Source: Escherichia coli
Lineage (GTDB): Bacteria > Pseudomonadota > Gammaproteobacteria > Enterobacterales > Enterobacteriaceae
Length of the DNA stretch: 64,000 nt
Assembly: GCF_048403405.1 (NCBI RefSeq)
Contig: NZ_CP183129.1
Direction: 5' to 3' (one strand)
This document shows positions 9,176 through 64,000 of the stretch, piece after piece. Positions within the stretch are counted from its first letter, which is position 1. The number at the start of each line of letters is the position of its first letter. The translations under genes and the position numbers were made by a program. The notes beneath the pieces were generated by a model. That model was given only the letters and a program-made list of their open reading frames with translations. It was not told the DNA's origin and did no database searches.

Positions 9176-9990
9176 TGTTGCAAATAGTCGGTGGTGATAA
9201 ACTTATCATCCCCTTTTGCTGATGGAGCTGCACATGAACCCATTCAAAGGCCGGCATTTTCAGCGTGACATCATTCTGTGGGCCGTACGCTGGTACTGCA
9301 AATACGGCATCAGTTACCATGAGCTGCAGGAGATGCTGGCTGAACGCGGAGTGAATGTCGATCACTCCACGATTTACCGCTGGGTTCAGCGTTATGCGCC
9401 TGAAATGGAAAAACGGCTGCGCTGGTACTGGCGTAACCCTTCCGATCTTTGCCCGTGGCACATGGATGAAACCTACGTGAAGGTCAATGGCCGCTGGGCG
9501 TATCTGTACCGGGCCGTCGACAGCCGGGGCCGCACTGTCGATTTTTATCTCTCCTCCCGTCGTAACAGCAAAGCTGCATACCGGTTTCTGGGTAAAATCC
9601 TCAACAACGTGAAGAAGTGGCAGATCCCACGATTCATCAACACGGATAAAGCGCCCGCCTATGGTCGCGCGCTTGCTCTGCTCAAACGCGAAGGCCGGTG
9701 CCCGTCTGACGTTGAACACCGACAGATTAAGTACCGGAACAACGTGATTGAATGCGATCATGGCAAACTGAAACGGATAATCAACGCCACGCTGGGATTT
9801 AAATCCATGAAGACGGCTTACGCCACCATCAAAGGTATTGAGGTGATGCGTGCACTACGCAAAGGCCAGGCCTCAGCATTTTATTATGGTGATCCCCTGG
9901 GCGAAATGCGCCTGGTAAGCAGAGTTTTTGAAATGTAAGGCCTTTGAATAAGACAAAAGGCTGCCTCATCGCTAACTTTGCAACAGTGCC
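9171..9990 (+). mobile_element. IS26 (IS6 family), copy 1, 820 bp
   Basis: 14-bp terminal inverted repeats GGCACTGTTGCAAA at 9171-9184 and complement at 9977-9990; internal tnp26 ORF. Confidence 0.95.
9234..9938 (+). CDS. tnpA: IS26 transposase Tnp26 (R29H variant)
   Basis: 234-aa protein MNPFKGRHFQRDIILWAVRWYCKYGISY(H)ELQ... matches recalled Tnp26; codon 29 is CAT here and CGT in copy 2. Confidence 0.95.
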   Translation: MNPFKGRHFQRDIILWAVRWYCKYGISYHELQEMLAERGVNVDHSTIYRWVQRYAPEMEKRLRWYWRNPSDLCPWHMDETYVKVNGRWAYLYRAVDSRGRTVDFYLSSRRNSKAAYRFLGKILNNVKKWQIPRFINTDKAPAYGRALALLKREGRCPSDVEHRQIKYRNNVIECDHGKLKRIINATLGFKSMKTAYATIKGIEVMRALRKGQASAFYYGDPLGEMRLVSRVFEM

Positions 9991-10439
9991 AATTTTACGC
10001 CGTCGGCGGTACGCAGCCAGCGCGGGGATTTGAGTCCTTCCGTGAAATTCCAGACCAGCTCACACAGCAGCCCGGTCAGGGTTTGCTCCATTTTTGGTTC
10101 CGCCGGACGTTCCAGCAGAAGCTGGAGTAGTGCGAGGCAGTATTCGCACAAGGAATCAGGTTCGGAAATAAAGTGCTCTGGTGTGGCGGGAAGGGTATCC
10201 ACGGTCAGGCTTTCGGTAAGATGCGGTGGGATGGGGTCGTGTAGTGTGGGTTGCAGTAGCGCAAGAGCCGCGTGAAGCCGCCCGCAGAGCGCCAGTCGTA
10301 GCGCTGGATCGTCGGTTTCAATCAGGGTTTCGGCAAAGCGGGCGCAGTAGTCAGCAAGGACAGTGAAATCCGTGGTGGCATTGAAGGGGACGGTCAATAG
10401 ATCGAGTAAATCGCTGTCAGTGGTGAGGATTGTAGCCAT
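9972..10439 (-). CDS. Hypothetical protein, 3' end truncated by IS26 (last ~5 codons and stop supplied by IS26)
   Basis: 155-aa ORF with GGAGG 8 nt upstream of ATG; acidic, Leu-rich product; reading frame runs into the IS26 end at 9990. Confidence 0.5.
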   Translation of the reverse strand: MATILTTDSDLLDLLTVPFNATTDFTVLADYCARFAETLIETDDPALRLALCGRLHAALALLQPTLHDPIPPHLTESLTVDTLPATPEHFISEPDSLCEYCLALLQLLLERPAEPKMEQTLTGLLCELVWNFTEGLKSPRWLRTADGVKLALLQS

Positions 10440-10785
10440 AGGGCAACCTCCGATAAGTGGGTGTTCAAGCCACCACCGGAGAGGCTAATCTCGCGGGTGG
10501 TGGAACCGGGCAGGGTTAGCCTTACCAGCCTTATCGGACACTGGCGCGTCTTGCGACGCCCCCGCCCGGCCCACCATTGAGATGTAACCGTGCGAACAAC
10601 ACAAAAAAAGACGCTGGCGCGTCATGTGTCGCCGATAAGATTTCTTCAGGAGGCTAATCCCGACGCCTGATTTTGCAGGCGCGGGAGAAAGATACTGCGA
10701 TTGGTCATGAGTGGCAAGGGCTACATCATGTTTACCGACATCTCACGCAAAAATACCCTGATTATTAATAGCGAAAATCAGTTTC
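10440..10785 (-). other. GC-rich, repeat-rich non-coding region downstream of the RT gene; candidate structured ncRNA
   Basis: No ORF of 60 aa or more; hairpin ccaccacc/ggtggtgg (10481-10503); inverted pair ccgataag/cttatcgg (10451-10458, 10530-10537); direct repeats gaggctaatc (10490-10499 and 10651-10660) and ctggcgcgtc (10541-10550 and 10611-10620). Confidence 0.3.
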
Positions 10786-13700
10786 TTATTTTGGCGGTAG
10801 CTTTTTGCGGTTCTTTGCCAACTGGAATCCTTCAGGTAACGGTTTGAATTTATCGCCGCCTTTAGGCCAGCGTTTTGCCCTGCTCTGAAATGCCCTTAAC
10901 GAGTCGATATCCAGCGTTGCAGCGACCACAAAGTCATTATCACCGCCCTTCACACGAGCAATATCACGCATAAAGGGTTCTTTTGCCGGGGAACGTACGC
11001 GACTATCGCCGTATTTTCGGTTATTCACTAAAATAGTATAGGCATGAATATCCAGCGCTGCTGATTCAATCAACGATGCAAACGTATCTAGATCTTTATT
11101 CCAGCTCAATACCATTAATGCATCGAGTGCGCCCTGAAAACGGATCCTCGCTTTACTATTCTGGAGTTCAGAGCAAATCATAACGCCAAAATTGACGCCG
11201 TGATGAATATATACCGGCTTACGTTGTTTAACATTAAGTGTCGAATCCCAAGACTTACCATAAGTTGAAAATAATGCCTCATCTTCACCTACGGCGGGTT
11301 CCAGCTTGGGTTGCCATATTTTGACACTCGCTGGATAGCCGAGTCTGTTATCTGAAAGGACAAGTACGGCCTCACTCTTCAGTTGATTATCGTCTAAGTG
11401 GCGGTATTCTGTTCCCGCAATTAGACTGATACCCGCCGAACTCAAACGATCAGCAATACTGTTAACCCAGCGTAACGGGATTGAAAGCTCAGGGAATAAA
11501 ACATAATCAGGTTTAGGAGATAGTTTCAATGTTGCATTAACCAGTTCAGAAATCCGCTGGTACCTTGAACGGGACAAGTTAGATTTATTGCAGGCCATTT
11601 TAGCCCAGTCGTCCTCCTCTGTTTTAATGCTGGTTAGCGCAACGACAACTTTATGTTTCCTGTCTGTGCCAATATGAATGAATTTCTTAGGCCGAGCTTT
11701 TTTTGTCGCTTCATCTGAGTCCTGCTCCGATGCTAGCAACGTCGGTTTGATCCATACTCCGCGTAATGCTTGAGTATATTTTGCCCAAATGGTGGACGGT
11801 CTCTCATCTGGTTTTTTGTCGGATGTGGAGGGTAATCCAACACATTCGGGGGCCAGTTCTGATATTTCAGCGGGTGTTAAAGGACGTGTAGGGAAAATGT
11901 AAGGTAGGTAACTTTCGTTTTTACGATTTCCTTTAGCCACTTTTTCCAGTCGGGTATTCTTGGTTGATTTCAAAAATAGCTTAATAACGTCAATATCAAT
12001 AAGCGATGAGTCGCTCATTAATTTCAGTATTTTAACTTCTTTTTTACTATCACGCTGATTAACAAGTTTTTCTGCCGACTGACTCTTTACGATCTGTTTA
12101 TAAGGTTCCTTTGCTAAATCAGCTCGAGCTACCAATGGCGCTTTTAAATAAAAATCTGCTGAATCAAAGCGAAGATCCAGTAAATCCTTTAGATTCGTCA
12201 GACTTTGTGAAATATGATTAAAAAATGTATCCGCAAGGCACTCTTCTTTCTTTGAACGTTTATCAAGAAATAATCTGTCAGGACTGTAATATCGTGTCGC
12301 TGCATCAACAAATAGCCAGCTTAATGTGCCTTTTATACAGCGCCAAAGATCATTTACTGCTCGAGTTTTGCAACCATTTATATTCACTTCCTTACCTGAA
12401 GTAATCACCGATGCCAACAGGTTGATGGATTCGTAAGCTTTAAGTACAATTTTTTCCGCGTGCTGCCATTCATTCATACTGATAGCAAAGCCAAGCAGCC
12501 TTGGCAGATAACTAAAATGTGCAAATAGATTATCAGCCCTAAGAATATGGTTGTAGGCAAACTGATAAAACTCTTCCCGCTGTTCTTTCCATTCACTTGG
12601 AGGCAGATCTCGTGCCAGTGTTTCAACGTAGCGTAATTGCAGTGACCAGCCCAAACGACGAATGGTTAATCCATCCGCACGGCGCAGAGTATCGGCATTT
12701 TCACCTACACTACCGGCAGCGGAAAGGACTTTAGCTGCGGTGGAGTGTTCCAGTTGATCCGGTGAAGGCATCAAGCGGTGTTCACTAGAAAGCTCGTAGA
12801 TCTCCTTTTCGATACTGTCGAGCAGGTCTATTCCAGCCCTCCCTTGAAGCACGAAAAGTTTTTGCTTATCGGATTGTAACTGGATGGTGGTCTTACCCTG
12901 GAAATGCTCGCCCTGCTGTATTTGCCATATTTGTTTTTGCTCGTTTTTCAAATAAACGCAATCATTGCCAAGCCTATCTTGCAGCAATAACATAAATTCG
13001 TGATTATTAGTAATTGTCCCTGTATCGCGTATTACAAGGAACATATCATCGACATAACGACCGTAGTGAATTGGTGATAGTTTTTCAATGACTAATTTAT
13101 CCCAATGGTGTAGCAATATATTTGAAATGATCCGACTGGCTGTTAATCCAATGACCAGACCACCATTAATAACAGGTGTTTTGTACGCTATTTTCTTTCC
13201 AAATGCCGCTGCGCCGTCAGACCAGTGCTTTAAGAATACTGCTAACTGTGCAGTAAACGCTTTTTCATCCTCAGTCAGTTTTATGTTTAGTGTGTTATAG
13301 AGATCATCAGAGGTTATAGCCAGTGGATCAATAAAATGATAGTAACTTTTTAAATCCAGTGAGGCGGCGATAATGTCACGATCTTTTTCCAACTCGTCAC
13401 GTATAGCTTTTAAGCCATCACCACGCCATTTTTGGTAGGGCTGGAAGTAGGGGCTAAAAGAACCCACGGCACTGATATGGAATGGATTATCCTGCTCATT
13501 GCTAAATAATTCATCATTACGAATACGCTTTAGCCGCGCGCCATAGCAACAGTTATCTAAGCTGGCATCAAATTTATGCCCGACCATGTTAATCCATAGT
13601 GCAGAGATAATGTGACTATCAACCGGGAAGTCACCAATAATACGAAACTCTGGTATCAGATCAAAATTATTAAATAAATGGTCGGCTGCTCGTTTAGGAT

Positions 13701-13995
13701 TAGAAAAGTGGACGTGTCCATTTTGGGATTCATGTTTTTTCTTTGTGGTTAATTTTTTCGGTAACAAACGAAATTTGCCAATCAACTTCTTATTGCTACT
13801 GAATCCATCTTCGCTCTGCAAAAGATCTAAGAGTTTTTGCAGGTTTTCAAGTAATTCCTGCTCATACTCGGCAAATTTGATAGCAACAGGAAATGTATTC
13901 TCAAAGAAGCTATCGGCTTTTGCTTTCCGGTAAGCGACCAGAAGGTCTTCAATCGTCAGATCATCCCAGCCAGTGAAAATTGCCTGATATGTCAT
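10786..13995 (-). CDS. Defence-associated reverse transcriptase fused to C-terminal nitrilase (CN-hydrolase) domain, DRT type 1-like (UG1-like)
   Basis: 1069-aa ORF with AAGGA RBS; RT motifs LDLKSYYHFID, GGLVIGLTASRIISNILL, YVDD (complement of 13045-13056); nitrilase triad context FPELS, VKIWQPK, GVMICSEL (Cys codon complement of 11173-11175). Confidence 0.75.
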   Translation of the reverse strand: MTYQAIFTGWDDLTIEDLLVAYRKAKADSFFENTFPVAIKFAEYEQELLENLQKLLDLLQSEDGFSSNKKLIGKFRLLPKKLTTKKKHESQNGHVHFSNPKRAADHLFNNFDLIPEFRIIGDFPVDSHIISALWINMVGHKFDASLDNCCYGARLKRIRNDELFSNEQDNPFHISAVGSFSPYFQPYQKWRGDGLKAIRDELEKDRDIIAASLDLKSYYHFIDPLAITSDDLYNTLNIKLTEDEKAFTAQLAVFLKHWSDGAAAFGKKIAYKTPVINGGLVIGLTASRIISNILLHHWDKLVIEKLSPIHYGRYVDDMFLVIRDTGTITNNHEFMLLLQDRLGNDCVYLKNEQKQIWQIQQGEHFQGKTTIQLQSDKQKLFVLQGRAGIDLLDSIEKEIYELSSEHRLMPSPDQLEHSTAAKVLSAAGSVGENADTLRRADGLTIRRLGWSLQLRYVETLARDLPPSEWKEQREEFYQFAYNHILRADNLFAHFSYLPRLLGFAISMNEWQHAEKIVLKAYESINLLASVITSGKEVNINGCKTRAVNDLWRCIKGTLSWLFVDAATRYYSPDRLFLDKRSKKEECLADTFFNHISQSLTNLKDLLDLRFDSADFYLKAPLVARADLAKEPYKQIVKSQSAEKLVNQRDSKKEVKILKLMSDSSLIDIDVIKLFLKSTKNTRLEKVAKGNRKNESYLPYIFPTRPLTPAEISELAPECVGLPSTSDKKPDERPSTIWAKYTQALRGVWIKPTLLASEQDSDEATKKARPKKFIHIGTDRKHKVVVALTSIKTEEDDWAKMACNKSNLSRSRYQRISELVNATLKLSPKPDYVLFPELSIPLRWVNSIADRLSSAGISLIAGTEYRHLDDNQLKSEAVLVLSDNRLGYPASVKIWQPKLEPAVGEDEALFSTYGKSWDSTLNVKQRKPVYIHHGVNFGVMICSELQNSKARIRFQGALDALMVLSWNKDLDTFASLIESAALDIHAYTILVNNRKYGDSRVRSPAKEPFMRDIARVKGGDNDFVVAATLDIDSLRAFQSRAKRWPKGGDKFKPLPEGFQLAKNRKKLPPK

Positions 13996-14289
13996 GCGTT
14001 ATCGTCCTTAGATTACAGTCTGTACAGAATTAGCCAGCCGTTTCATGCCCGAAGGGGGGCTCTTGACACCAGTAATCCATCAGTGAGGCTGGCAATAATT
14101 TTGATTTGTATCCATGTTACACGCTCCCCGCAACCAGTCCGAGCATATATTTGTCACATTTTTCCCGAAAGTGATTAAGTTTGAATTTTTTGTTTAATGT
14201 CGATTTTTAGTCGACAAAATGAGGAATAAGTAAACTATTTCTTGCTGTGGCGTATCCCTGAATCTACACTGGTTTAAATATTTGTACTA
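13996..14289. promoter_or_regulatory. Divergent promoter region between RT gene and abiEi, with palindrome gtcgatttttagtcgac (14200-14216)
   Basis: AT-rich 294-bp spacer between divergently oriented genes; inverted repeat is a candidate AbiEi operator. Confidence 0.35.
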
Positions 14290-15093
14290 ATGTCTATTCA
14301 GAGGCGACAGTTGCCAAACTATCTAAACTGGCTGATGCAGCACACGCTACCCGGCCAGGTGCTGCTCCAGTCATGGCTTACCCGCAACGGCATAGATCGT
14401 AAGCTCTCTTATCTCTATGTGAAGAATGGCTGGCTCAGGCGGATCGCTCACGGCGTATACTGCCGGACGGGCCGTGAGCCGGATTGGGTAGACGCGGTTT
14501 ACTGCCTTCAAACACAGTGGGAAAAGCCTGTTCGGGTGGCGGGGCTAACCAGCCTTGCGCTTCAGGGCCATGCGCACTATACCGAACCGGGTAAGCCGCA
14601 GGTCTGGCTCGCGCTTCCGGCTTACGTTAAGCTGCCGGGATGGTTTGCTGCCTTCGAACAATCTGCAACATTTATCACGCTGTATACATCGGGGCTTACC
14701 GTAGATGTAACGTCATTGACTACGGAACTGAAAATTGGCGACCGCCAGTTAGCAGGCAGTGCCCCGGAACTGGCCGCGTATGAGATCGCCTGCGGCGTTC
14801 CTTCGTTGATATCGTTCGAACATGCCGATGCTCTGTTTCAGGGGATGAATCTTCTCAGCCCACGCAAATTGCAGGCACTGCTTCGCGCCAGCCATTCGGT
14901 TAAAACCAACCGGGTGATGCTTTACCTTGCCCGGCGTAATGGACACCCTTATTTTCAGTATATTGATCAAAGCGGTATAGAAACAGGTACGGGAAAGCGG
15001 CAAATCATACCCGGCGGCTGGCTGGAGCCGGATTATCAAATTACTGTTCCACGCGCATTTAAACCGGAAGGAGTCGAAGATGGATCTGCGTGA
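14290..15093 (+). CDS. abiEi: AbiEi-family antitoxin/transcriptional regulator (type IV TA / abortive infection)
   Basis: 267-aa ORF, N-terminal motif ...GWLRRIAHGVY typical of AbiEi; overlaps downstream AbiEii gene by 14 nt. Confidence 0.7.
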   Translation: MSIQRRQLPNYLNWLMQHTLPGQVLLQSWLTRNGIDRKLSYLYVKNGWLRRIAHGVYCRTGREPDWVDAVYCLQTQWEKPVRVAGLTSLALQGHAHYTEPGKPQVWLALPAYVKLPGWFAAFEQSATFITLYTSGLTVDVTSLTTELKIGDRQLAGSAPELAAYEIACGVPSLISFEHADALFQGMNLLSPRKLQALLRASHSVKTNRVMLYLARRNGHPYFQYIDQSGIETGTGKRQIIPGGWLEPDYQITVPRAFKPEGVEDGSA

Positions 15094-16000
15094 TAGCTAT
15101 GCCCGGCAGGTCAAACTGTTGATGGCCGCTCTGCCGTATGTGGCGAAGGAGTCCTGTTTCGCGTTGAAAGGCGGCACCGCAATCAATTTGTTTGTGCAGG
15201 ATTTTCCCCGTCTGTCGGTGGATATTGATCTGGCGTACAAGAGCTTTGCGGATCGCGATACTGATTTGGCGGCTATCAACGACGCTTTGAAGAGGATTAC
15301 TGCATCGCTGAACGGCAGACCGGGGATCACCGCGATTCGGCAGGAAAATAAAGCGGATGAAAAGCGCATCATTGTGAATACCGCTGATGCAAAGATTAAG
15401 ATCGAGGTTAGCCCGGTCTGGCGCGGGCTGTTGTTGCCTCCGGCAGAAATGCCTGTGTGCGAACGTGTGGAAATGGAGTATGGCTTCACCACCATGAGTG
15501 TCGTCTCGCTGGCGGATCTTTATGGCGGTAAAATCTGCGCTGCGCTTGATCGTCAGCACCCGCGCGATCTGTTTGATGTGCTGAATATGCTGGAGAAACC
15601 GGGACTGATGCGGGAGATCTTTGACGGTTTTCTTTGTTATCTGGCAGGCCATCCCCGCCCCATCGCCGAGTTGCTGGCTCCAAACTGGGATACAGAGCGG
15701 ATCGCCACGTTGTACGCGCAGGAATTTTCGGGGATGACTCAGCAGGAAACGTCGCTGGAATCGCTGCTGTCAGTAACGACTTTGCTGCCGCAGGCGTTGA
15801 AGTCACATCTTACGGATCTGGATCGCGAGTTCTTGCTCAGTTTTAAGCAAAACAGCCCTGACTGGTCGCGGTATCGCTATCCTGAAATTCAGCATCTTCC
15901 GGCTATTCGCTGGAAGCAACGTAATCTGGCGGTGCTGAAAGATAAAAATCCGGCGAAGTATGTGGCGGCGGTGAATAAGCTAGAGAGGGTGCTGGCGTAA
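15080..16000 (+). CDS. abiEii: AbiEii/AbiGii-family nucleotidyltransferase toxin
   Basis: 306-aa ORF with SD GGAAGGA; motif ALKGGTAINLF...RLSVDIDLAY characteristic of AbiEii (DUF1814). Confidence 0.75.
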   Translation: MDLRDSYARQVKLLMAALPYVAKESCFALKGGTAINLFVQDFPRLSVDIDLAYKSFADRDTDLAAINDALKRITASLNGRPGITAIRQENKADEKRIIVNTADAKIKIEVSPVWRGLLLPPAEMPVCERVEMEYGFTTMSVVSLADLYGGKICAALDRQHPRDLFDVLNMLEKPGLMREIFDGFLCYLAGHPRPIAELLAPNWDTERIATLYAQEFSGMTQQETSLESLLSVTTLLPQALKSHLTDLDREFLLSFKQNSPDWSRYRYPEIQHLPAIRWKQRNLAVLKDKNPAKYVAAVNKLERVLA

Positions 16001-16364
16001 TCAATAGACCAGCATTAATCACGGATGATTACCAATCAGACAGATATGGTTAAATCATCGAATTCATAATTAATACTTTTTCTTACGCCGCTGAACAGCT
16101 TGAAAAGGATACATATTTTAAATATCAGTGAAGTGGACAGTTTATTGCCGTTATTAATAGAGATGGAGGAATAAATACGCGTATTCTACTATTGCAACAA
16201 AAACAACGATGATGATCAGTTTTCATAATGAAGTAACCTGACAGATATAAAAATGTTGATTGAGGCTCAATGCCCGGATGAAGGTTGTCGAGGGAGCCAG
16301 GTGGTTTTTTCTTTTGGGTGATCTCCATTGCTGGATAGTCCCCTCTTTCTCGCTCAAAGCAGAC

Positions 16365-16689
16365 TGTACTGCACCCATTTTGTTGGACGATGAAATGGAA
16401 TAGCCCCTAATATGTCAAAGCCAAAATACCCTTTTGAAAAGCGCCTTGAAGTCGTGAATCACTACTTCACAACTGATGATGGTTACAGGATCATCTCGGC
16501 ACGTTTTGGTGTCCCCCGAACCCAGGTCAGGACATGGGTTGCCCTCTATGAAAAACATGGAGAAAAAGGTTTAATTCCCAAACCTAAAGGCGTTAGTGCT
16601 GATCCAGAGTTGCGTATTAAGGTCGTGAAAGCTGTGATCGAGCAGCACATGTCCCTTAATCAGGCTGCTGCTCACTTTATGCTTGCTGG
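16365..16689 (+). mobile_element. IS150 (IS3 family) left-end fragment, truncated by IS26
   Basis: Begins TGTACTGCACCCATTTTGTTGGACG; encodes the N-terminal ~90 aa of InsJ/OrfA (MSKPKYPFEKRLEVVNHYFTTDDGYRIISARFGVP...) ending at the IS26 boundary. Confidence 0.8.
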
Positions 16690-17509
16690 GGCACTGTTGC
16701 AAATAGTCGGTGGTGATAAACTTATCATCCCCTTTTGCTGATGGAGCTGCACATGAACCCATTCAAAGGCCGGCATTTTCAGCGTGACATCATTCTGTGG
16801 GCCGTACGCTGGTACTGCAAATACGGCATCAGTTACCGTGAGCTGCAGGAGATGCTGGCTGAACGCGGAGTGAATGTCGATCACTCCACGATTTACCGCT
16901 GGGTTCAGCGTTATGCGCCTGAAATGGAAAAACGGCTGCGCTGGTACTGGCGTAACCCTTCCGATCTTTGCCCGTGGCACATGGATGAAACCTACGTGAA
17001 GGTCAATGGCCGCTGGGCGTATCTGTACCGGGCCGTCGACAGCCGGGGCCGCACTGTCGATTTTTATCTCTCCTCCCGTCGTAACAGCAAAGCTGCATAC
17101 CGGTTTCTGGGTAAAATCCTCAACAACGTGAAGAAGTGGCAGATCCCACGATTCATCAACACGGATAAAGCGCCCGCCTATGGTCGCGCGCTTGCTCTGC
17201 TCAAACGCGAAGGCCGGTGCCCGTCTGACGTTGAACACCGACAGATTAAGTACCGGAACAACGTGATTGAATGCGATCATGGCAAACTGAAACGGATAAT
17301 CAACGCCACGCTGGGATTTAAATCCATGAAGACGGCTTACGCCACCATCAAAGGTATTGAGGTGATGCGTGCACTACGCAAAGGCCAGGCCTCAGCATTT
17401 TATTATGGTGATCCCCTGGGCGAAATGCGCCTGGTAAGCAGAGTTTTTGAAATGTAAGGCCTTTGAATAAGACAAAAGGCTGCCTCATCGCTAACTTTGC
17501 AACAGTGCC
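16690..17509 (+). mobile_element. IS26, copy 2, 820 bp, same orientation as copy 1
   Basis: Terminal repeats GGCACTGTTGCAAA at 16690-16703 and complement at 17496-17509. Confidence 0.95.
16753..17457 (+). CDS. tnpA: IS26 transposase Tnp26
   Basis: 234-aa protein matching recalled Tnp26 (R29). Confidence 0.95.
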   Translation: MNPFKGRHFQRDIILWAVRWYCKYGISYRELQEMLAERGVNVDHSTIYRWVQRYAPEMEKRLRWYWRNPSDLCPWHMDETYVKVNGRWAYLYRAVDSRGRTVDFYLSSRRNSKAAYRFLGKILNNVKKWQIPRFINTDKAPAYGRALALLKREGRCPSDVEHRQIKYRNNVIECDHGKLKRIINATLGFKSMKTAYATIKGIEVMRALRKGQASAFYYGDPLGEMRLVSRVFEM

Positions 17510-24337: not shown

Positions 24338-24382
24338 AGGGCAAAGCGGAAACGGATAGGACGGGGATAAATGAAGAAGAAA

Positions 24383-24459
24383 TGGCGCGCCCTGCAGGAT
24401 TCGAACCTGCGGCCCACGACTTAGAAGGTCGTTGCTCTATCCAACTGAGCTAAGGGCGC
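24383..24459 (-). tRNA. argU: tRNA-Arg (anticodon UCU)
   Basis: Reverse complement reads GCGCCCTTAGCTCAGTTGGATAGAGCAACGACCTTCTAAGTCGTGGGCCGCAGGTTCGAATCCTGCAGGGCGCGCCA, 77 nt with CCA end. Confidence 0.95.
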
Positions 24460-37780: not shown

Positions 37781-38674
37781 CTACAGCGAAATACAGGTCC
37801 CCGCTTCGCCCGCCAGCGTCTCTTCAATCCGCGATAACGCCCCAATCCACGCAGGTTTACCACGGCTTCTGACATAGCCACTCACCGCAGTCACCTTCGG
37901 CCCCATCGAACCATCGGCTTTGGCAAATGGCGCTAACTCATCCGGTGTGGCATGGCGAATGGCACGTTGCTGCGGCGTTCCCCAGTTTTCATATACCGCA
38001 TCAGCATCGGTGAGGATCACCAGTCCATCGGCATTAATCTGCTCGGCAAGCAACGCAGCGGCGAGATCTTTATCAATCACCGCTTCACTCCCTGCTCCGT
38101 CATCCGTCACCGGCACACCGCCGCCGCCACTGCAAATTACCACATGCCCCTCTTTGAGCAACAACTCAATGGCTTCGCTGTCGAGAATTTTACGCGGTTG
38201 CGGAGACGCCACCACCCGGCGTAAATATTTACCATCACGTTTCATCTGCCAGCCATAAGCCGCTTCCAGTGCCTCTTGTTCTTCTGGCTGATAAACCGGA
38301 CCGATAAACTTCTCTGGCTGCAAAAACGCCGGATCATCAGGCGAAACTTCAATGCGCGTCAGCACCGTCGTGACAGGCGGCATCTGCGGCTGTGCGCCCA
38401 AACTCTGCGCCAGCATATAGCCAATCATCCCCTGGCTTTCCGCAACCAGCACATCCAGCGGATACGGTTCTACCTCTTTCCACGCCAGATTCTGCAATGC
38501 CAGCAGCCCCACCTGCGGCCCGTTGCCGTGAACAATCGCCAGCCGATAAGAACGGGCCTGGCGCGCCAGCGCGGGTACAGCACTGGCGATATTGCGATAT
38601 TGATTTTCTGCCGTCAGCGCCTCACCGCGCTGGAGTAAGGCGTTGCCCCCAAGAGCCACAACCAGTGTTTTCAT
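37781..38674 (-). CDS. ybcF: Carbamate kinase-like protein YbcF
   Basis: 297-aa [21 protein letters not shown]..., amino-acid kinase fold. Confidence 0.85.
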
Positions 38675-39486
38675 GGTTTTCCTTGTAATAATTGTTGGCC
38701 AAGCCAGAACCCCAGCAGCGTATCTGCCCCTGACGTATGCCCCAGCGCCAGCAGCGAATCAATCGCAACAGCGGTACGTTTCGGGCAACTCAGAGCATGA
38801 ACAAAGTGCAGGAGTGGCGAGGCGAAATATCCTTGCGCGGCATAACGTAAATAACTGACGCTCACCGCTGTGGTAACGAGTTGAAGATTGTCGGAACAGG
38901 CAAAAAACGGGCGACCGGAGCGCGCATCTAAAGCGCCATAATACCAGGCCGCCAGCAGCATTCCGCTCAGCGTGTCATCATGACTTGGCGTTAATCCGGG
39001 GCCTTTACCCAACCAGTGCCGCCAGTCGGTCTTAACGCCATTGAGCGCGGCCTGAAAACAGTGACGAAACTGGCGTAATTCAGCAGGCAGCGGATCGCTT
39101 GCCGCCAATGCCAGTGGCCCGAAAAGCCCGGTTTCCTCCGCGCGTTGCATCCATGCAACGGCAAGCGGTTGAGGATGCGCAGGCGGCGTAATACGCAGCA
39201 AACAATAACGCTGTGGCTGTTTAACCGTGAAACGCCCGAGGCGAATCCCTTGTGCCACAACCTGTGGTCGTTCATTGCCGCATAATCCACCGCATAACGC
39301 ATCGAATTGCGCGCGGCGAAGCACCCATCCTCCGGGGCCGAAACCACTACCCTGACGATGCAGTGTTAACAATTCACCGCTTTCCGTCATCAGGTTAATC
39401 GCCCGCCGCCACACGCCCGCTAACCGCCAGGACTGGCGATAATTCGGTGCACTACGGCTGGCAAGCAGAGGATGGATGATCGTCAT
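38671..39486 (-). CDS. ylbF: DUF2877 protein YlbF
   Basis: 271-aa protein from [10 protein letters not shown] within longer ORF 38671-39579. Confidence 0.8.
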
Positions 39487-39496
39487 TGTGCGTTCC

Positions 39497-40756
39497 TCAA
39501 CCAATCCCCATGCTTTCAGCCAGTGCTTCCAGCGCCTGTTCAAAGCACGCCAGCGGTGCCCGCACAGTGCCTGCGCCAATCTGCCCGATCCCCGCCTCTT
39601 TATGGGCGATACCGGTATTGATGAGTGGCGTAATGCCGGTTTCTACCACGCGACGAATATCCAGCCCCAGGCACGCGCCCTGAAAATCCCAGCCGGGGAT
39701 CTGCAACTGCATATTGCGTTCAAGGAAGATTTCCGCCATCTCTTCAGATACCGCTCTGGCCGCTTCCATGCCACCCGCACCGACAAAGCGCGTTACGCCA
39801 GGCGCTGCGATCATCGCCGCACCTCCGATACCAAAGGTTTCGGTAATTGCGCTATCGCCCATATCCGGGTTCGCCTGCTCCTGCGAGAAACCGGTGAAAA
39901 ACAGACCTTGGGGAGTGTTTACAGGCGCAGTAAACCAGCGTTCGCCCAGCCCGCTGACCCGAATCCCGAACATATTGCCGTTGCGGGTCATAGCCGTGAC
40001 GATGCTGCCTGCGCGGATCATCGCACCAGCATCCATCGCCGCCTTGCAGTAAGCCATCGCGAGGTTGAGGAAGAACTGATCGGTCACGCTGAGGAAATCC
40101 ATCACTTCCGCGATGTGCTGTTTATCATGATCGAGGCGAGCAATTTGTGGGGCCAGCGCACGCATTAACAGTGCTGAGGAAGCAATATTGCGTTGATGGA
40201 ACTCATCGCCCATGGTAATGCCCTGCGCCATCATCGCGGTAAGATCGATACCGTGCTCCATGCGCCCCAGCGCCGCGCTTAATACTGGCATTAACACATC
40301 GCGCATCCAGCGATGGCGAGTCAGGACATCTTCGCCGTAAGCGCCAAAACGCATCACTTTGCCGATACCTTCGTTGAGGTTGCAGTACGCCCGGTTGCCG
40401 TCGGTCACGTTCTCGACCACCAGCATCGGCATACTGGCAGAAGTAATGCCACCCATTGGCCCGACGGCATTTACATGGTGACAAGGAATGAAGTTCACTT
40501 CCCCCTGCTCCAGCATTGCCAGCGCCTGCGCTTCATCTTTCGCCCAGCCTTCGAACAGACATGCGCCCACGCACGCCCCTTTCATGGGTCCGGTCATCTC
40601 CTGCCAGCGCATTGGCGGCCCGGCGTGAAGCAGTGTTTTGCCCTCGTTTAGTTCGCTGATAAGTGAAGAAGCCGGTTGCACATCCAGCCAGTGTGGACGA
40701 GCACGACGAATTTGTTCGATAACCGCAGCATTGGCTTGCGCCACTGATGTAAACAT
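39497..40756 (-). CDS. ylbE: DUF1116 protein YlbE (intact)
   Basis: 419-aa uninterrupted ORF. Confidence 0.8.
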
Positions 40757-40765
40757 GGGAACCCC

Positions 40766-42433
40766 TTATTGCAAACGTTCTAATAAACGAGCCAGTTTTT
40801 TATTGCCGCCGGCGACTGGCGACCATTGGTAATGCACAACCGGTTTGCTGGCGCTTTGTAGCGCCAGCGCAAAGCTGCGTAATCCGATGTTAATCACGGC
40901 GACGTTTTCCAGTAATGACGGTGTGTGTTGCTGTGTGGCAGGCGAGAGCGGATGAATTAACGCTGCCGCCAGCAAGGTGGCTTCCGGCAGCGAACTCACG
41001 ACCGCGATCCCCGCATCTTCCAGCGTGGCGATTTGTTGCGAGCGGCATTGCGGGTCACGTTCGGTGCCTGTCACCGTGGCAATGGCATACAGTGGTTGAT
41101 TGTCTGGACGCGCGGCACAGGCTTTTTGCCAGGCGCTCACCAGCGAGGCGGCAGGATCGGCAGTCGCACCGAAGCCAATCACGACATCAAGCAGCAACAC
41201 GCGCACTTGCGGTTTAGCGCCGAGATCGGCAATTAACAGGTTGCGTAAGGTCGGGTCGATCATCGGATGGGGACGCCCGACGGTGTAAAAATCATCGCCC
41301 AGGTCGAGGATCTGATGTCCGTCGGCGTCGAGCATCATGCCATGTTGATGGGTATCGTCGGCTTCCACGCCAAGGTGTCCGGCAAGTAATCCCGCCGCTT
41401 CAGCAGCCAGCGTACCGCCGGTATACAAACCGCAAATAAATCCGCTGCTGACAGGTGCTATTGCGTTACGTCGCGCCGTGACGCGTGAAAGCAGGCAAGC
41501 CAGGCGTGCGGCCTCATCAAGCGAGGAGGCAAACCAGACATTCTCGTCGCGGGCCACCGCCGGGGTATAACCTAAAAACAGCGCCACCGTCGGTTTGCCA
41601 GTTGCTTTCATGGCATTAACAATTTTCAGACGCACAGCTTCGGCAGGTGGTTTTGAAACAAATGCCAGCACTTCGCTTTTCGCGTCGGCGCTTAACATTT
41701 CCAGCGCCGTTAGCGCACTGATGCCGCCCACTTCACGGCTGAGGTCGCGCCCGCCAAGACCAATCGCGTGAGTAATTCCCTCCTCTGCCAGCGCAATCTG
41801 TGAGCACAGCTCCTGAATCCCGGTACCGGAAGCGCCAATGACGCCAATGTTGCCTTCCGGCATCACGTTAGCAAAAGCCAGCGGCGTGGCGGCAATCATC
41901 GACGTACCGCAGTCCGGCCCCATCACCAGCAAGCCTTTATCGCGTGCGCGGGTTTTGAGTTGGATTTCATCTTCCAGCGTGACGTTATCGGAGAACATCA
42001 TCACGTTGAGGTTGCGATCCAGCGCCTGATTAGCCAGCTCCGCCGCATACTCGCCAGCCACTGAAATCAGCGCCAGACTGGCATCGGGTAATTTCTGACA
42101 GGCACTGTCCCAGCGACGCACCTGCGTCAACGCCTGGCTGCTGCCTGAACCCTGCGCCAGTTGTTTTAGCGCCTCTTCAAGCTGTTGCATAATCGCCTGC
42201 GCGATCCCCGCATCCGCCGCTTCGCTACGAATTGCCACGCAAATATCGTTCGGCGTGGCGTTATTAAAATCGTCATGCCAGAAACCTGTCGTCTCTAATA
42301 ACGCTTTATTGGCGGGCGTACCCATCATTACAGAAACATCATCAACATTTTCTGATTCGCTTAGTTTTCGTGAAATAATCATTAAACTGACCGAATCCTG
42401 AAAACACCCTTTTTTAATAAAGGCGTGGATCAT
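40766..42433 (-). CDS. fdrA: FdrA, CoA-binding/succinyl-CoA synthetase-like protein
   Basis: 555-aa ORF; synteny. Confidence 0.85.
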   Translation of the reverse strand: MIHAFIKKGCFQDSVSLMIISRKLSESENVDDVSVMMGTPANKALLETTGFWHDDFNNATPNDICVAIRSEAADAGIAQAIMQQLEEALKQLAQGSGSSQALTQVRRWDSACQKLPDASLALISVAGEYAAELANQALDRNLNVMMFSDNVTLEDEIQLKTRARDKGLLVMGPDCGTSMIAATPLAFANVMPEGNIGVIGASGTGIQELCSQIALAEEGITHAIGLGGRDLSREVGGISALTALEMLSADAKSEVLAFVSKPPAEAVRLKIVNAMKATGKPTVALFLGYTPAVARDENVWFASSLDEAARLACLLSRVTARRNAIAPVSSGFICGLYTGGTLAAEAAGLLAGHLGVEADDTHQHGMMLDADGHQILDLGDDFYTVGRPHPMIDPTLRNLLIADLGAKPQVRVLLLDVVIGFGATADPAASLVSAWQKACAARPDNQPLYAIATVTGTERDPQCRSQQIATLEDAGIAVVSSLPEATLLAAALIHPLSPATQQHTPSLLENVAVINIGLRSFALALQSASKPVVHYQWSPVAGGNKKLARLLERLQ

Positions 42434-42750: not shown

Positions 42751-43800
42751 ATGAAAATCAGTCGGGAAACACTCCACCAGCTAATCGAGAATAAACTCTG
42801 CCAGGCTGGGTTAAAACGTGAGCACGCTGCAACCGTGGCTGAAGTATTGGTTTACGCCGATGCCAGAGGGATCCACTCTCATGGCGCGGTGCGCGTGGAA
42901 TACTACGCGGAACGCATTTCAAAAGGCGGCACCAACCGCGAACCGGAGTTTCGTCTTGAGGAAACCGGGCCGTGTTCGGCAATTTTACATGCCGACAATG
43001 CTGCCGGACAGGTCGCGGCGAAAATGGGTATGGAACATGCCATCAAAACCGCCCAGCAAAAAGGCGTTGCGGTGGTCGGTATCAGCCGGATGGGTCACAG
43101 CGGCGCAATCTCTTATTTTGTACAGCAGGCAGCTCGCGCCGGGTTAATTGGCATTTCGATGTGCCAGTCCGATCCAATGGTGGTGCCGTTTGGCGGCGCG
43201 GAAATTTACTACGGTACTAACCCACTGGCCTTTGCCGCGCCGGGAGAAGGCGACGAGATCCTTACCTTTGATATGGCGACTACCGTACAGGCATGGGGAA
43301 AAGTGCTCGACGCCCGCTCGCGTAATATGTCTATCCCGGATACCTGGGCGGTCGATAAAAACGGAGCACCAACAACCGATCCATTTGCAGTTAACGCCCT
43401 GCTCCCTGCCGCCGGACCGAAAGGGTATGGCCTGATGATGATGATTGACGTCCTCTCAGGCGTCTTACTCGGCTTACCGTTCGGGCGACAGGTTAGTTCG
43501 ATGTATGACGATTTACACGCCGGGCGTAATTTGGGGCAATTACATATCGTTATTAACCCGAACTTTTTCTCCTCCAGCGAACTATTCCGTCAACATCTTA
43601 GCCAGACCATGCGCGAATTAAATGCCATAACCCCCGCGCCCGGTTTTAACCAGGTTTATTATCCCGGACAGGATCAGGATATTAAACAACGCAAAGCCGC
43701 CGTCGAAGGCATCGAAATTGTTGATGATATTTACCAGTATTTAATTTCTGACGCGCTTTATAACACGTCATACGAAACGAAAAATCCCTTTGCGCAATAA
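42751..43800 (+). CDS. allD: Ureidoglycolate dehydrogenase
   Basis: 349-aa ORF MKISRETLHQLIENKL...; Ldh_2 family. Confidence 0.9.
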   Translation: MKISRETLHQLIENKLCQAGLKREHAATVAEVLVYADARGIHSHGAVRVEYYAERISKGGTNREPEFRLEETGPCSAILHADNAAGQVAAKMGMEHAIKTAQQKGVAVVGISRMGHSGAISYFVQQAARAGLIGISMCQSDPMVVPFGGAEIYYGTNPLAFAAPGEGDEILTFDMATTVQAWGKVLDARSRNMSIPDTWAVDKNGAPTTDPFAVNALLPAAGPKGYGLMMMIDVLSGVLLGLPFGRQVSSMYDDLHAGRNLGQLHIVINPNFFSSSELFRQHLSQTMRELNAITPAPGFNQVYYPGQDQDIKQRKAAVEGIEIVDDIYQYLISDALYNTSYETKNPFAQ

Positions 43801-43821
43801 TTATTGAGACAGGACTTTCTT

Positions 43822-45057
43822 ATGATTACACATTTCCGTCAAGCCATAGAAGAAGCGCTGCCCTGGCTTTCCTCTTTTGGCGCTGACCCAACGGGTGGGA
43901 TGACCCGTTTACTTTATTCGCCGGAATGGCTGGAAACCCAGCAGCAATTTAAAAAAAGAATGGCAGCAAGCGGGCTGGAAACACGTTTCGATGAAGTGGG
44001 GAATTTATATGGTCGCCTGAGTGGCACCGAATATCCACAGGAAGTGGTTCTGAGCGGTTCGCATATCGATACCGTGGTTAACGGCGGTAACCTCGACGGG
44101 CAATTCGGCGCGCTGGCGGCGTGGCTGGCAATTGACTGGCTGAAAACGCAATACGGCGCGCCGTTACGTACGGTCGAAGTGGTGGCGATGGCAGAAGAAG
44201 AAGGCAGCCGCTTCCCGTATGTCTTCTGGGGCAGTAAAAATATCTTTGGGCTGGCGAATCCTGACGACGTGCGGAATATCTGTGATGCCAAAGGAAATAG
44301 TTTTGTCGATGCGATGAAGGCTTGCGGATTTACTCTGCCGAACGCCCCACTAACTCCGCGTCAGGATATTAAAGCCTTTGTCGAACTGCATATCGAACAG
44401 GGCTGTGTGCTGGAAAGTAATGGTCAATCAATTGGCGTGGTGAATGCAATTGTCGGGCAACGTCGCTATACGGTGACGCTGAACGGCGAATCAAACCATG
44501 CAGGCACCACGCCGATGGGTTATCGTCGTGATACGGTTTACGCTTTCAGTCGCATTTGCCATCAGTCGATCGAAAAAGCGAAAAAGATGGGCGACCCGCT
44601 GGTGCTGACCTTTGGTAAGGTGGAGCCGCGCCCGAATACGGTGAATGTGGTGCCGGGTAAAACCACGTTCACCATTGATTGTCGTCATACCGATGCTGCC
44701 GTGCTGCGCGATTTCACCCAACAGTTAGAAAACGACATGCGGGCGATTTGCGATGAAATGGACATTGGTATTGATATCGATTTATGGATGGACGAAGAAC
44801 CCGTGCCGATGAACAAGGAACTGGTCGCCACCCTGACAGAATTGTGTGAACGCGAAAAACTGAATTACCGGGTGATGCACAGTGGTGCCGGGCACGACGC
44901 ACAAATTTTCGCGCCGCGCGTGCCGACCTGCATGATTTTTATCCCCAGCATCAACGGGATCAGCCATAACCCGGCAGAACGCACCAATATTACCGACCTT
45001 GCCGAAGGGGTCAAAACGTTGGCACTCATGCTTTATCAACTTGCCTGGCAGAAATAA
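43822..45057 (+). CDS. allC: Allantoate amidohydrolase
   Basis: 411-aa protein from MITHFRQAIEE within ORF 43804-45057; M20 peptidase family. Confidence 0.9.
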   Translation: MITHFRQAIEEALPWLSSFGADPTGGMTRLLYSPEWLETQQQFKKRMAASGLETRFDEVGNLYGRLSGTEYPQEVVLSGSHIDTVVNGGNLDGQFGALAAWLAIDWLKTQYGAPLRTVEVVAMAEEEGSRFPYVFWGSKNIFGLANPDDVRNICDAKGNSFVDAMKACGFTLPNAPLTPRQDIKAFVELHIEQGCVLESNGQSIGVVNAIVGQRRYTVTLNGESNHAGTTPMGYRRDTVYAFSRICHQSIEKAKKMGDPLVLTFGKVEPRPNTVNVVPGKTTFTIDCRHTDAAVLRDFTQQLENDMRAICDEMDIGIDIDLWMDEEPVPMNKELVATLTELCEREKLNYRVMHSGAGHDAQIFAPRVPTCMIFIPSINGISHNPAERTNITDLAEGVKTLALMLYQLAWQK

Positions 45058-45067
45058 GGAGTTATAA

Positions 45068-45853
45068 ATGGGATATTTAAATAACGTCACCGGTTACCGC
45101 GATGATTTACTGGCTAACCGTGCGATTGTGAAACACGGTAATTTCGCGCTGCTAACCCCGGACGGTCTGGTAAAAAATATTATTCCGGGCTTTGAAAATT
45201 GTGACGCGACAATCCTCTCCACGCCAAAGCTGGGTGCCTCTTTTGTTGATTATCTGGTCACACTGCATCAAAACGGTGGCAACCAACAGGGCTTCGGGGG
45301 CGAAGGCATTGAAACGTTCCTGTATGTGATCTCTGGAAATATCACTGCCAAAGCCGAAGGTAAAACATTTGCCTTAAGCGAAGGTGGCTATCTTTATTGC
45401 CCACCAGGCTCCTTAATGACGTTTGTTAACGCCCAGGCCGAAGACAGCCAAATCTTTTTATATAAGCGTCGCTATGTTCCGGTAGAAGGTCATGCGCCGT
45501 GGCTGGTTTCTGGCAATGCCAGCGAACTCGAACGCATTCATTATGAAGGCATGGACGATGTTATTCTGCTGGATTTTCTGCCCAAAGAGTTAGGTTTTGA
45601 TATGAACATGCATATCCTCTCTTTTGCGCCAGGTGCCAGCCACGGTTATATCGAAACTCACGTCCAGGAACACGGTGCCTATATTCTTTCCGGTCAGGGG
45701 GTTTATAACCTCGACAATAACTGGATCCCGGTGAAAAAAGGCGATTACATCTTTATGGGCGCTTATTCCTTACAGGCCGGTTATGGCGTAGGGCGTGGTG
45801 AAGCGTTTAGTTATATTTACTCAAAAGATTGCAACCGCGACGTAGAGATTTAA
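45068..45853 (+). CDS. allE: (S)-ureidoglycine aminohydrolase (cupin)
   Basis: 261-aa ORF; synteny. Confidence 0.85.
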   Translation: MGYLNNVTGYRDDLLANRAIVKHGNFALLTPDGLVKNIIPGFENCDATILSTPKLGASFVDYLVTLHQNGGNQQGFGGEGIETFLYVISGNITAKAEGKTFALSEGGYLYCPPGSLMTFVNAQAEDSQIFLYKRRYVPVEGHAPWLVSGNASELERIHYEGMDDVILLDFLPKELGFDMNMHILSFAPGASHGYIETHVQEHGAYILSGQGVYNLDNNWIPVKKGDYIFMGAYSLQAGYGVGRGEAFSYIYSKDCNRDVEI

Positions 45854-45895
45854 GTCATACCACTCGCCTGATTATTTTTAGCTATGTTGGATTTT

Positions 45896-45922
45896 GCCAC
45901 GGTTTATACCGTGGCTTTTTTT
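45896..45922 (+). terminator. Rho-independent terminator after allE
   Basis: Hairpin gccacggtttataccgtggc followed by TTTTTTT. Confidence 0.6.
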
Positions 45923-45982
45923 GCGGTAAATTCAGGTAAAAAACGGATGCGGGATAAAATGCATCCGCTCTAATGGCAAGAG

Positions 45983-60378: not shown

Positions 60379-63300
60379 CTTGTAAAGCCTTTATCGTTTT
60401 TTTATGCTCTGGATTAATATAATTAATACATCTATTTGAGCAATCTTGTGTTAATGGACATGTCAACCCATGTTCATTTACAGCCAAGTCTTTTTTATTA
60501 TCTTCAATCATCTCAGAATGGGATAACTTTACTTTTCTGCCGTACATACCGAACATATTTAACCCGTAATCTCTAATCTCTTTTTCATAACCCAGCCCTT
60601 TCGCTGATCGGCTAACACCAGCGTCATTTAATTTAGACACTCGACAAAATGCCATACAATGGAAAAATTGATCAGTCCCACCTAAATTTAATCTCTTCAT
60701 ATCATCATAAGTATCAGATAATATATCCCATGCTCTTTGATGGTTTAGTTGTTCTTTTTTTCGCATTAACGCTACATCTGCAGGACTTAACCCTAATGGA
60801 TCAATACCATTCACCGGATTCAGCGGATACGCATACAGACTCCATCCCCCCGCCAGCCCAATCGGGTCCTGAGTAATATATCGTCCCAGCAACGGATTGT
60901 AGTACCGGTTCCGGTTATAATACAGCCCTGACTCCTCATCGTGTTGCTGCCCTGGCAGACGGTACGGCTGGTGCAGGTGATGCGGGTTTTCCTCATTCAG
61001 CAGGTTTCCCCACTCATCATACTCCCCGCTCCACGCCGTATTGCCGTCTTCGCTGATGAGCGCCAGCGGCAGCCCCCGGTGGTCACAGTGATAAAGATGA
61101 ATTTTTCGCTCAGGTAAATAAACCGGCTCTATCTGTGTCGCCAGCCGCTCCACCGTCAGCCCGCACTGTGCCAGCCACTGGCGGCTTTCACTGCTCACGC
61201 GGTCTGCCCGGATTTCCCCCTCCAGCCTGTCCAGCAGCCGCACCAGTTCAGCCGGGAACACCACGCCGTGTCCGTCCTCGCTCCCTTCCTGCTGGAGCTT
61301 CTCCGCCAGGCTCCGCCGCTGCGTTTTCTCCCGCTCGCCGTTGTCTGTTTCGATGCGGATGAGCGGTGTGAAGCTTCCCGGCTCGTATACCGTCTGGATA
61401 CGTGTGCTGTCGGTCTGCACCGTCGTCAGGTGGTCGCCGTCCCAGCCGTACCACGTCACCTCCGGTTTACGCGACAGCGACATCCACCCCGTCAGGTCAC
61501 GCTCCCGCCGCCATACCCGTTTCGCCATTCGCCGTCCCAGCGGGTCGTAGAGGTAGCGGCTCTCGACCAGTGGCTCGCCATGCTGTATCCGCGTGTAGAA
61601 CTCCAGGCGGTGCTGGCTGTCGTAGTGGTAGTGGTGGGTCCGCTCGTCGTCCGTCCGTATCACACCCGCCGGGATGCGGTCCGTCTTCTCCGTCAGCCTG
61701 CCGTATTCATCGTGGCGGTAGACATAGTGCGCATCCTCCGCGATGCGGTTATCCGGCCACGCCGTGAGTGTACTGTCCGGGTGCAGCTCCGGGTCCTGCA
61801 GCCGGTTGCCCGCCGGGTCCGTGGCATACGGGATGCGGATGTCCAGGTCCGGTGCGAGGGTGCGTACACTCGCCAGCCTGCCCGTGGCACTGTAGCCGTA
61901 TTCCCGCGTCTGTCGCGGGCCGCTGATGCGCACAAGGTCGCCGTTGTCATTCCACCCGTAGTCACGGTCATACACCAGGCTGTTCAGGTGCTGGCTCTGT
62001 AACTGGCCTGCAGGGGTGTATGTGCTGGTCAGTTCGTATGCGGCATTACTGCCTGCCATGCTGCCAAAGCTGCGCACCGTTTCTCTGTGCAGGCGGTCGC
62101 GCGCGTACTCCAGCAGCGGCGTGTCGCCCAGCTTCATGCCCGCCAGATAACCGCTACCGTAGGTCAGCCACTCCACCGGCGGCAGGCTGTCCGGCGTGAC
62201 GCGGTTTGCCAGCCCCTGTTCGTTGTATGCCTGTTTCGTCTCATGCTGCCACAGCAGTTCCCCCGTCTCCGGGTTCTCCACCGTCTGGCGCTCCCCGGTC
62301 AGACGGCCCTTATCGTCATAGCCATAGTGGACGGCAACACGGTGGCCTTCGCTCAGGTGGCTGATTTCTCTCAGCCAGCCGTGGCCATCATACCGCCACT
62401 GTTCTGCCGGTTCGCCGTTCACCGTGCGGTGAGTGATACGGTCCGATTCGTCGTAGTGCCAGAGGGTGACAAGCCCCTCATCTTCACTCTGCGTGAGTTT
62501 TCCGGTCAGGTCATAGTGGTAACGTTGCGTCCGCCCGTCAAAGCCGCGCTGCTGTACCAGCCGGTCCAGCGCATCGTAGCTGAAGTCGCTGTGACTGCCG
62601 TTCTCGTTGGTCAGGCTGATGACACGTCCTGCCGCGTCATACTCCATACTGCGCGTCAGCCCGCCCTGTGTGGTGCTGACCGCCTTTCCCCACGCATCGT
62701 ACTGTGTCTCGCTCCGGTTGCCGTCCGGGGTGATAACGGCAGTCAGGTCGCCTGCGGCGTTGTATTCATACCGCGTTTCACGGCCCTGTGCGTCTTTCAC
62801 CGAGGTTAACCGGCCACGGTTGTCATAGCGGCGGTAACGGCTGATACCTTCCTCGCGGTGAACCGCCGTCATCTGGCCGAAGCGGTCGTATTCATAACGG
62901 GTCTGGTAGCCCGAGCAGTCAGTGAACGCCAGCAACTGCCCGTAGCGGCTCCACGTCATCTGCCGGGTGCTGCCCGTCGCATCCGTTGTCGTCGCCGGTA
63001 ACTCACTGTGCGCGTCATCGTAGCGGTAGCGTACTGTCTCCCCGCTGCGCGATGTCTCCGATACCAGCCTGTCCCGCTCATCATACGCCCGGCGGCTCTC
63101 CAGCCCGTCCGGGTACACCACCGCCGTCAGCCGGTTCCCGTCGTTATAGTAAAATTTCGTCTCCCGCCCGTCCGGCGTGGTGATGTCCGTGATGTCGCCT
63201 GACACCACATTCAGACCGTACTCTGTCCGCCGTCCCGCCGCGTCCGTCTGCGCCGTGAGCCTTCCTGCCGCGTCATACCCGCTGTGCGTGACGCTGCCGT

Positions 63301-64000
63301 CCGCCAGTTCTTTTTTCACCACCCGCTTCAGCCCGGCCCCGCCTTCTGTATGCAGCACCTCTCGCCGGTTCAGGCTGTCGGTGACGGTGATGCGGTCCTG
63401 CTCATACTGGTAGCGGTAACTCAGGCCTGCCGGGTTCAGCTGCTCCACCACCCGCCCCGCATCGTCGTAGCGGTAGCGCATCTCCGGCCTTCCCGCATAA
63501 CGGTGCCCCACCATCCGGCCCGGGTGCTGCGGGTCATACGTGAAAGCGCGCACCTGTGTCCCGCTGCGGTCATATACCGCCAGCAGTTCACCGGCTTCCG
63601 TATACGTGTACCGCACCAGTGGCGCACCGGGCAGATTCTCCGGGTATGCCGGGTCGTGCATCAGCCACACCGCCGAAAGGCGGATACCCCTGTCGGGGCC
63701 GTATTCCGTACCGGGCAGTGTGTCGGGGAACGCTGAGGCTGAGAGAGGGCGGGAACGGTCAGAAGAAGATAGCGAAGAGGTGCGGGCCTCTTCCGCACGC
63801 TGCGCCTGTGTGGTCAGCACCAGACGGAACTCCCGCCCGGCACCGTCCGTCACGCCGGTGATTTCCCCGGCCAGGTCACCGGCGGCCTCACGCCGGTACG
63901 TCAGCGTCTGCCCGAAGCGGTCCGCCAGCCCGGTAAGCACCCGGTACGGCGGCAGCGGCGCTGGCAGTACGTCCTCAGTGCCCGGCACCCGCTCTGACCA
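60359..64000 (-). CDS. Rhs family protein (RhsD locus position), partial, with variable C-terminal toxin domain
   Basis: YD-repeat-rich ORF running off the window; core ends ...DPIGLAGG...[11 protein letters not shown], followed by ~140-aa low-GC C-terminal extension. Confidence 0.85.

Follow-up and report, generated by a model that had tools for sequence, protein, structure and literature searches.

Whether an intact ylbE gene sets an Escherichia coli strain apart from K-12 MG1655, in which the gene has been regarded as split by a frameshift, is the question raised by this locus, together with that of whether the fdrA-ylbE-ylbF-ybcF cluster could be functional. The gene was analysed within a stretch of 64,000 nt of E. 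coli DNA (hereafter the window), where it reads as follows:

39497..40756, minus strand: ylbE (= allG), 419-aa ORF with ATG start and TGA stop; AllG subunit of oxamic transcarbamylase (OXTCase)

We hold with near certainty that this ORF is an ordinary, functional allG within the allFGHK operon, that the "split ylbE" belongs to a superseded reference and that the intact state is universal and ancestral; none of the data contradicted this explanation. An intact ylbE/allG is, in itself, already known and ordinary.

The coordinates and length of the intact 419-aa ORF, as given in the earlier note, were confirmed by the ORF list and by translation, and the strand, which it lacked, has now been added: all 419 codons are translated from the minus strand of the window without an internal stop, and the plus strand of 39497-40756 is full of stops. 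By Pfam, the protein belongs to PF06545 ("AllG, oxamate carbamoyltransferase subunit", formerly DUF1116), membership of which means a score above the curated gathering threshold; it reached 325.8 bits against a cut-off of 27, with YlbE residues 87-302 covering profile positions 1-215 of 215. Moreover, PDB entry 3CLQ, a structural-genomics "uncharacterized protein" without assigned function that we take to come from Enterococcus faecalis, is a distant orthologue colinear with YlbE over its whole length (query residues 3-413 on residues 9-418 of the 421-aa chain; 46% identity; E = 1.5e-111). Since this chain of 421 aa aligns end to end, about 420 aa represents the native full-length architecture of the AllG family, and the window protein is likewise colinear over its full length with the E. 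coli AllG of 419 aa that has been characterised by experiment. An open frame of 419 codons with a full-length PDB homologue is far beyond chance. When AllG and AllH were scanned against Pfam at a relaxed threshold (E up to 10), a second family was not found, so that no sequence-level link of these proteins with the folds of CoA ligases or transcarbamylases emerged. For AllG, the AlphaFold2 model built from a three-sequence alignment (window, MG1655 and 3CLQ), with a mean pLDDT of 39.8 and a pTM of 0.38, is too poor for any structural statement.

The ylbE region (39300-40950, 1.65 kb) matched 5,420 of 5,426 complete E. coli genomes, and the feature beneath these matches is annotated as ylbE, located between fdrA and ylbF. 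Two of the 5,423 places matching this region lie in records labelled as plasmids.

In the current MG1655 record (NC_000913.3), ylbE (b4572, YP_009029994.1) is annotated as an intact CDS at 548357..549616, i.e., 1260 nt or 419 aa. The ungapped alignment of 1260 nt with the window gene contains 28 substitutions (97.78% identity) and 0 indels, and 415 of 419 residues are identical, the changes from MG1655 to the window being I81M, R168H, Y344F and S355G. With a dN/dS of 0.048 between the two, ylbE is under strong purifying selection on both lineages. Beyond the equal length of YlbE/AllG, the operon order fdrA-ylbE-ylbF-ybcF and the intergenic spacings are as in the window, and the allFGHK operon is divergent from allDCE in both. 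The very observation that the earlier note had set against its own claim, an intact MG1655 ylbE of the same length, is what NC_000913.3 holds (1260 nt, ungapped alignment). Its statement that the gene is frameshifted in MG1655 consequently fails for the current record, and the split form traces to the superseded MG1655 reference. Given that ylbE of present-day MG1655 is intact, its intactness cannot separate the window strain from MG1655.

The historic K-12 "frameshift" can be located to a single nucleotide, accompanied by one silent difference:

40501..40505, minus strand: GGGGG run (CCCCC on the plus strand), ylbE nt 252-256; site of the historic K-12 "frameshift"
40643, minus strand: ylbE nt 114; G in the window and in MG1655 v3, A in old K-12 records; silent

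Deleting one G from the G5 run in silico brought up a stop at codon 87 and left an 86-aa fragment plus a 344-codon frame; this simulated loss of 1 nt matches the old split annotation (252-nt fragment, 86-aa truncation). The same state is found in the W3110 RefSeq record NC_007779.1, where ylbE (Y75_RS02660, 547581-548839) has 1259 nt, is flagged "frameshifted" and is distinguished from MG1655 v3 by two features only, A at nt 114 and the lack of one G at nt 252. Strain CIT (NZ_CP026028.1), with coordinates as in W3110 (547581-548839), likewise carries GGGG and A114 in a ylbE flagged "frameshifted". The older K-12 pseudogene (ylbE_1/ylbE_2) is therefore the same gene at the same locus, with GGGG, A114 and a frame truncated at codon 87, whereas the window has the G5 and G114 state and does not qualify as this pseudogene allele.

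In the literature, ylbE is listed as a pseudogene in the older MG1655 reference, and two differences, A to G at 547,694 and +G at 547,831, distinguish K-12 strains from that reference (PMC5460176, PMC4404585, PMC3045373). They sit at nt 114 (silent) and at nt 252/253 (extra G) of ylbE (same three papers), and in combination they make the annotated pseudogene intact (PMC5460176); the change was worded elsewhere as having "restored an intact ancestral gene" (PMC3045373). We infer the state of the superseded MG1655 reference (NC_000913.2/U00096.2) from these three papers and from four records with old coordinates; a literature search for an explicit statement on the correction of ylbE in U00096.3 returned nothing useful. 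It is to this superseded K-12 reference that the "split ylbE of MG1655" belongs, and neither present-day MG1655 nor E. coli in general shows it. In annotation or resequencing pipelines, this means that calls of "ylbE +G / A->G" against NC_000913.2 trace to one G in the G5 run, and the "frameshifted" flag in W3110 and in at least one old-coordinate K-12 assembly has the same single-G origin.

The state of the run was surveyed across 5,426 complete E. coli genomes by means of 32-mer queries whose position forces any 28-nt megablast seed to cross it; the resulting genome-wide count covers the ylbE G-run site only:

G5 with identical flanks: 4,941 genomes
G4: 4 genomes, all K-12 records (W3110, CIT, LIM, CAR)
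G6: 0 genomes
one difference in the 32-mer: 468 genomes (by identity, this class takes in the G4 records)
two differences in the 32-mer: 9 genomes

Four of four sampled records with one or two differences span exactly 32 nt, so these differences are substitutions and not indels. The K-12 derivative BW25113, which was sequenced independently, has an intact ylbE of 1260 nt, and JM109 and C41(DE3) carry the exact G5 form. Judged from these genomes, an intact ylbE is the near-universal and ancestral state and holds no strain information. CIT, LIM and CAR match the G4 form at old K-12 coordinates (about 547,824) and may have been assembled with the old reference as a guide, taking over its state. 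All three are "essential oils isolation" strains, and the CIT genome has 4,639,673 bp.

It could nevertheless be argued that G4 with A114 is a real null allele of some K-12 sub-lineage and not a sequencing error, with a slippage-prone G5 run and the window representing the ancestral form; we regard this as unlikely. Homopolymer runs are known slippage sites, and the silent SNP and the 1-nt indel, 138 nt apart, are identical in W3110 and in one aligned old-coordinate assembly, two linked differences being a pattern unusual for independent base-calling errors. However, G4 occurs in only 4 of 5,418 genomes and G6 in none, so that the run is not variable in nature, and the placement of CIT, LIM and CAR on old-reference coordinates, two of them with near-reference lengths, suggests reference-guided assembly. 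The MG1655 reference itself was later changed to the intact form, and PMC4404585, citing Freddolino et al. (2012), calls the G insertion a variation in common MG1655 stock cultures. That G4 with A114, as recorded for W3110 and for the superseded MG1655 reference, reflects a genuine allG null allele kept in some K-12 stocks is a shade less probable still; if it were true, such stocks would be natural OXTCase knock-outs, using allantoin nitrogen via the glyoxylate branch.

Returning to ylbE as an ordinary allG, its neighbours form a compact operon facing the genes for the preceding pathway steps:

40766..42433, minus strand: fdrA (= allF), 555 aa; succinyl-CoA-synthetase-alpha-like OXTCase subunit; Pfam CoA_binding and Ligase_CoA
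38671..39486, minus strand: ylbF (= allH), 271 aa; third OXTCase subunit; Pfam PF11392 AllH
37781..38674, minus strand: ybcF (= allK), 297 aa; catabolic carbamate kinase; NCBIfam PRK09411 equivalog, 615.8 bits
42434..42750, no strand: allD/allF divergent intergenic control region, 317 nt (316 nt in MG1655)
42751..45853, plus strand: allD-allC-allE, preceding pathway steps; all intact and of MG1655 lengths

FdrA matches NCBIfam PRK06091 (FdrA) with 1033.8 bits and has a structural homologue in PDB 3DMY; for AllH, no PDB relatives were found. All three proteins have the same length as in MG1655, with 12 (FdrA), 2 (AllH) and 3 (AllK) amino acid differences. The genes are tightly packed: allF and allG are separated by 9 nt (TAAGGGGTTCCCATG) and allG and allH by 10 nt (TGAGGAACGCACAATG), AllH starting at the ATG 10 nt after the ylbE stop and not at the upstream TTG of the mechanical ORF list, and allK overlaps the allH stop by 4 nt. 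The gene order allFGHK, with all genes intact and divergent to allDCE, is present in the window, and the synteny is identical in MG1655 and in strain TUM14771. Moreover, allS, allR, allA, gcl, hyi, glxR, allW, allB, ybbY and glxK are all intact, which leaves the allantoin regulon at MG1655 lengths. A promoter and terminator scan of the operon, including the allD-allF region, gave matches no more frequent than in shuffles, and no internal promoter or terminator above chance was seen within allFGHK. The glxK-allE intergenic region contains an Rfam match to the STnc480 sRNA (45860-45926, minus strand; 84.9 bits against a gathering score of 72).

The biochemical role of these genes has been clarified recently. 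AllF, AllG and AllH were described as the long-sought oxamic transcarbamylase, catalysing oxalurate + Pi <-> oxamate + carbamoyl phosphate (Kim and Kim, 2024; PMC11326118). In that work, AllG is given as 419 aa, the MG1655 wild type produced 17.7 mM oxamate from 19.5 mM allantoin and an allG deletion produced 0, and the AllFGH complex, purified after cloning from MG1655 DNA, had OXTCase activity (PMC11326118). Furthermore, ybcF/allK encodes a catabolic carbamate kinase and the four operon genes are co-transcribed (PMC9843812), and under anaerobic conditions with allantoin the operon is activated by AllS and ArcA, as described for the K-12 allF promoter (PMC12535856). With oxamic transcarbamylase, an orphan-enzyme problem of which this gene is a part was recently solved (2024), and ylbE should accordingly now carry the name allG.

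For the window, the integrity, identity, context and purifying selection of ylbE are observed directly. In the proposed pathway, transcription of allFGHK would start in the allD-allF intergenic region and run along the minus strand, with allG as the second cistron. Ureidoglycolate dehydrogenase would make oxalurate, the OXTCase substrate, and AllFGH, a three-protein oxamic transcarbamylase of which AllG would be an obligatory subunit, would phosphorolyse it to oxamate and carbamoyl phosphate during anaerobic allantoin catabolism. AllK would then convert carbamoyl phosphate and ADP to ATP, NH3 and CO2. Because of the 99% protein identity and the preserved context, the functions established in MG1655 can be extended to the window strain, so that an active enzyme that requires allG, and a co-transcribed operon under the control of AllS and ArcA, would be expected there as well. 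The suggestion that the fdrA-ylbE-ylbF-ybcF cluster is potentially functional is supported, with all four genes and the allantoin regulon intact at MG1655 lengths and an operon function that is experimentally established (PMC11326118, PMC9843812).

An intact ORF could in principle reside in an operon that is silent or inactive in the window strain, owing either to the nine control-region differences or to the 4 AllG and 12 AllF substitutions. The allD-allF intergenic region does differ from that of MG1655 by 8 substitutions and by an indel of 1 nt within an A run, but we consider this reading very improbable: a dN/dS of 0.04-0.11 across all four allFGHK genes argues for continued selection, I81M, R168H, Y344F and S355G affect none of the columns that are unchanged between E. 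coli and 3CLQ, and allS and allR are intact. In addition, the ylbE region, and with it the window allele, is 100% identical in at least seven other complete genomes, including GN02461, 4621 and MS 69-1. That MG1655 harbours a genuine ylbE pseudogene, an intact copy then marking another strain with a functional cluster that K-12 lacks, is scarcely credible: older literature and records list the K-12 gene as a pseudogene, and the W3110 RefSeq record still does so, but ylbE of NC_000913.3 is intact and of identical length, BW25113, JM109 and C41(DE3) carry G5, oxamate production by MG1655 depends on allG, and active AllFGH was obtained from MG1655 DNA.

With ylbE read as an ordinary allG, an outdated belief is corrected, namely that the current MG1655 reference carries the gene as a pseudogene, and an intact copy is unusable as a strain marker. 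The earlier note's conclusion that the strain is not MG1655 survives on other grounds, i.e., 94-98% identity, the absence of DLP12 and an IS26-bounded unit, and not as a deduction from an intact ylbE. Shared segments of the window and MG1655 are 94-98% identical, mostly 97-98%. The DLP12 cryptic prophage (21 kb; MG1655 564,755-586,056, with ompT, appY, nmpC and emrE) is absent from the window:

24381-24459: tRNA-Arg UCU, argU; the window passes directly from envY to argU

Strain TUM14771 is far closer to the window, with 99.96-99.99% identity from 17510 to 60950. At the end of the window, the rhsD-like region (60816-64000) is 94.2% identical to MG1655, compared with 97-98% elsewhere, and its alignment overlaps or repeats around 60816-61067; this suggests a different Rhs tip or an orphan arrangement.

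The IS26-bounded unit and its cargo are composed as follows:

9171-17509: IS26-bounded unit, 8.3 kb; IS26 copies at 9171-9990 and 16690-17509, 820 bp each, direct repeats
10493-10581: C4 antisense RNA, in the IS26 cargo
10604-10682: isrK, in the IS26 cargo
10786..13995, minus strand: defence reverse transcriptase of the UG5-nitrilase class, 1069 aa; PADLOC RT_UG5-nitrilase, 1034 bits
14290..15093 and 15080..16000, plus strand: AbiEi/AbiEii, known anti-phage system in the IS26 cargo
about 16364-16689: IS150 fragment, in the IS26 cargo

The two IS26 copies differ by 1 nt, and no 8-bp target duplications were seen at the outer or inner IS26 flanks of the unit. Compared with MG1655, the unit takes the place of cusR and cusS, together with ~11 nt at the start of cusC and ~200 nt at the start of nfrB, and the window strain should consequently lack the CusRS copper/silver sensor; compared with TUM14771, it replaces also a ~14-kb vgrG/Rhs/ISAs1 island. 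Neither junction of the unit is present among the 5,426 complete E. coli genomes. The cargo (9991-16689) thus holds two known anti-phage systems, the UG5-nitrilase reverse transcriptase and AbiEi/AbiEii, as well as a 155-aa ORF without family; the 1069-aa reverse transcriptase had no Pfam match at E<=0.001. Over its first 6,374 nt, the cargo matches with 100% identity an island located ~300 kb away in TUM14771 and relatives, and because of this identity it seems that a chromosomal defence island was moved or copied by IS26. In these genomes, the matching island adjoins a tRNA-Thr (proA side) and a ykgR fragment and looks like a decayed, integrase-bearing and possibly P4-like element.

A related record is NZ_CP146678.1, "plasmid unnamed3" of strain MS 69-1 (64,057 bp), which is made up of chromosomal genes (ykgR, the ecp operon, paoABCD and the DRT/AbiE island) and a prophage. 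It duplicates a chromosomal segment of MS 69-1, and a frameshift is flagged in many of its CDSs; its appearance is that of an assembly artefact, or of a circle that was excised or amplified, and not that of a true plasmid.
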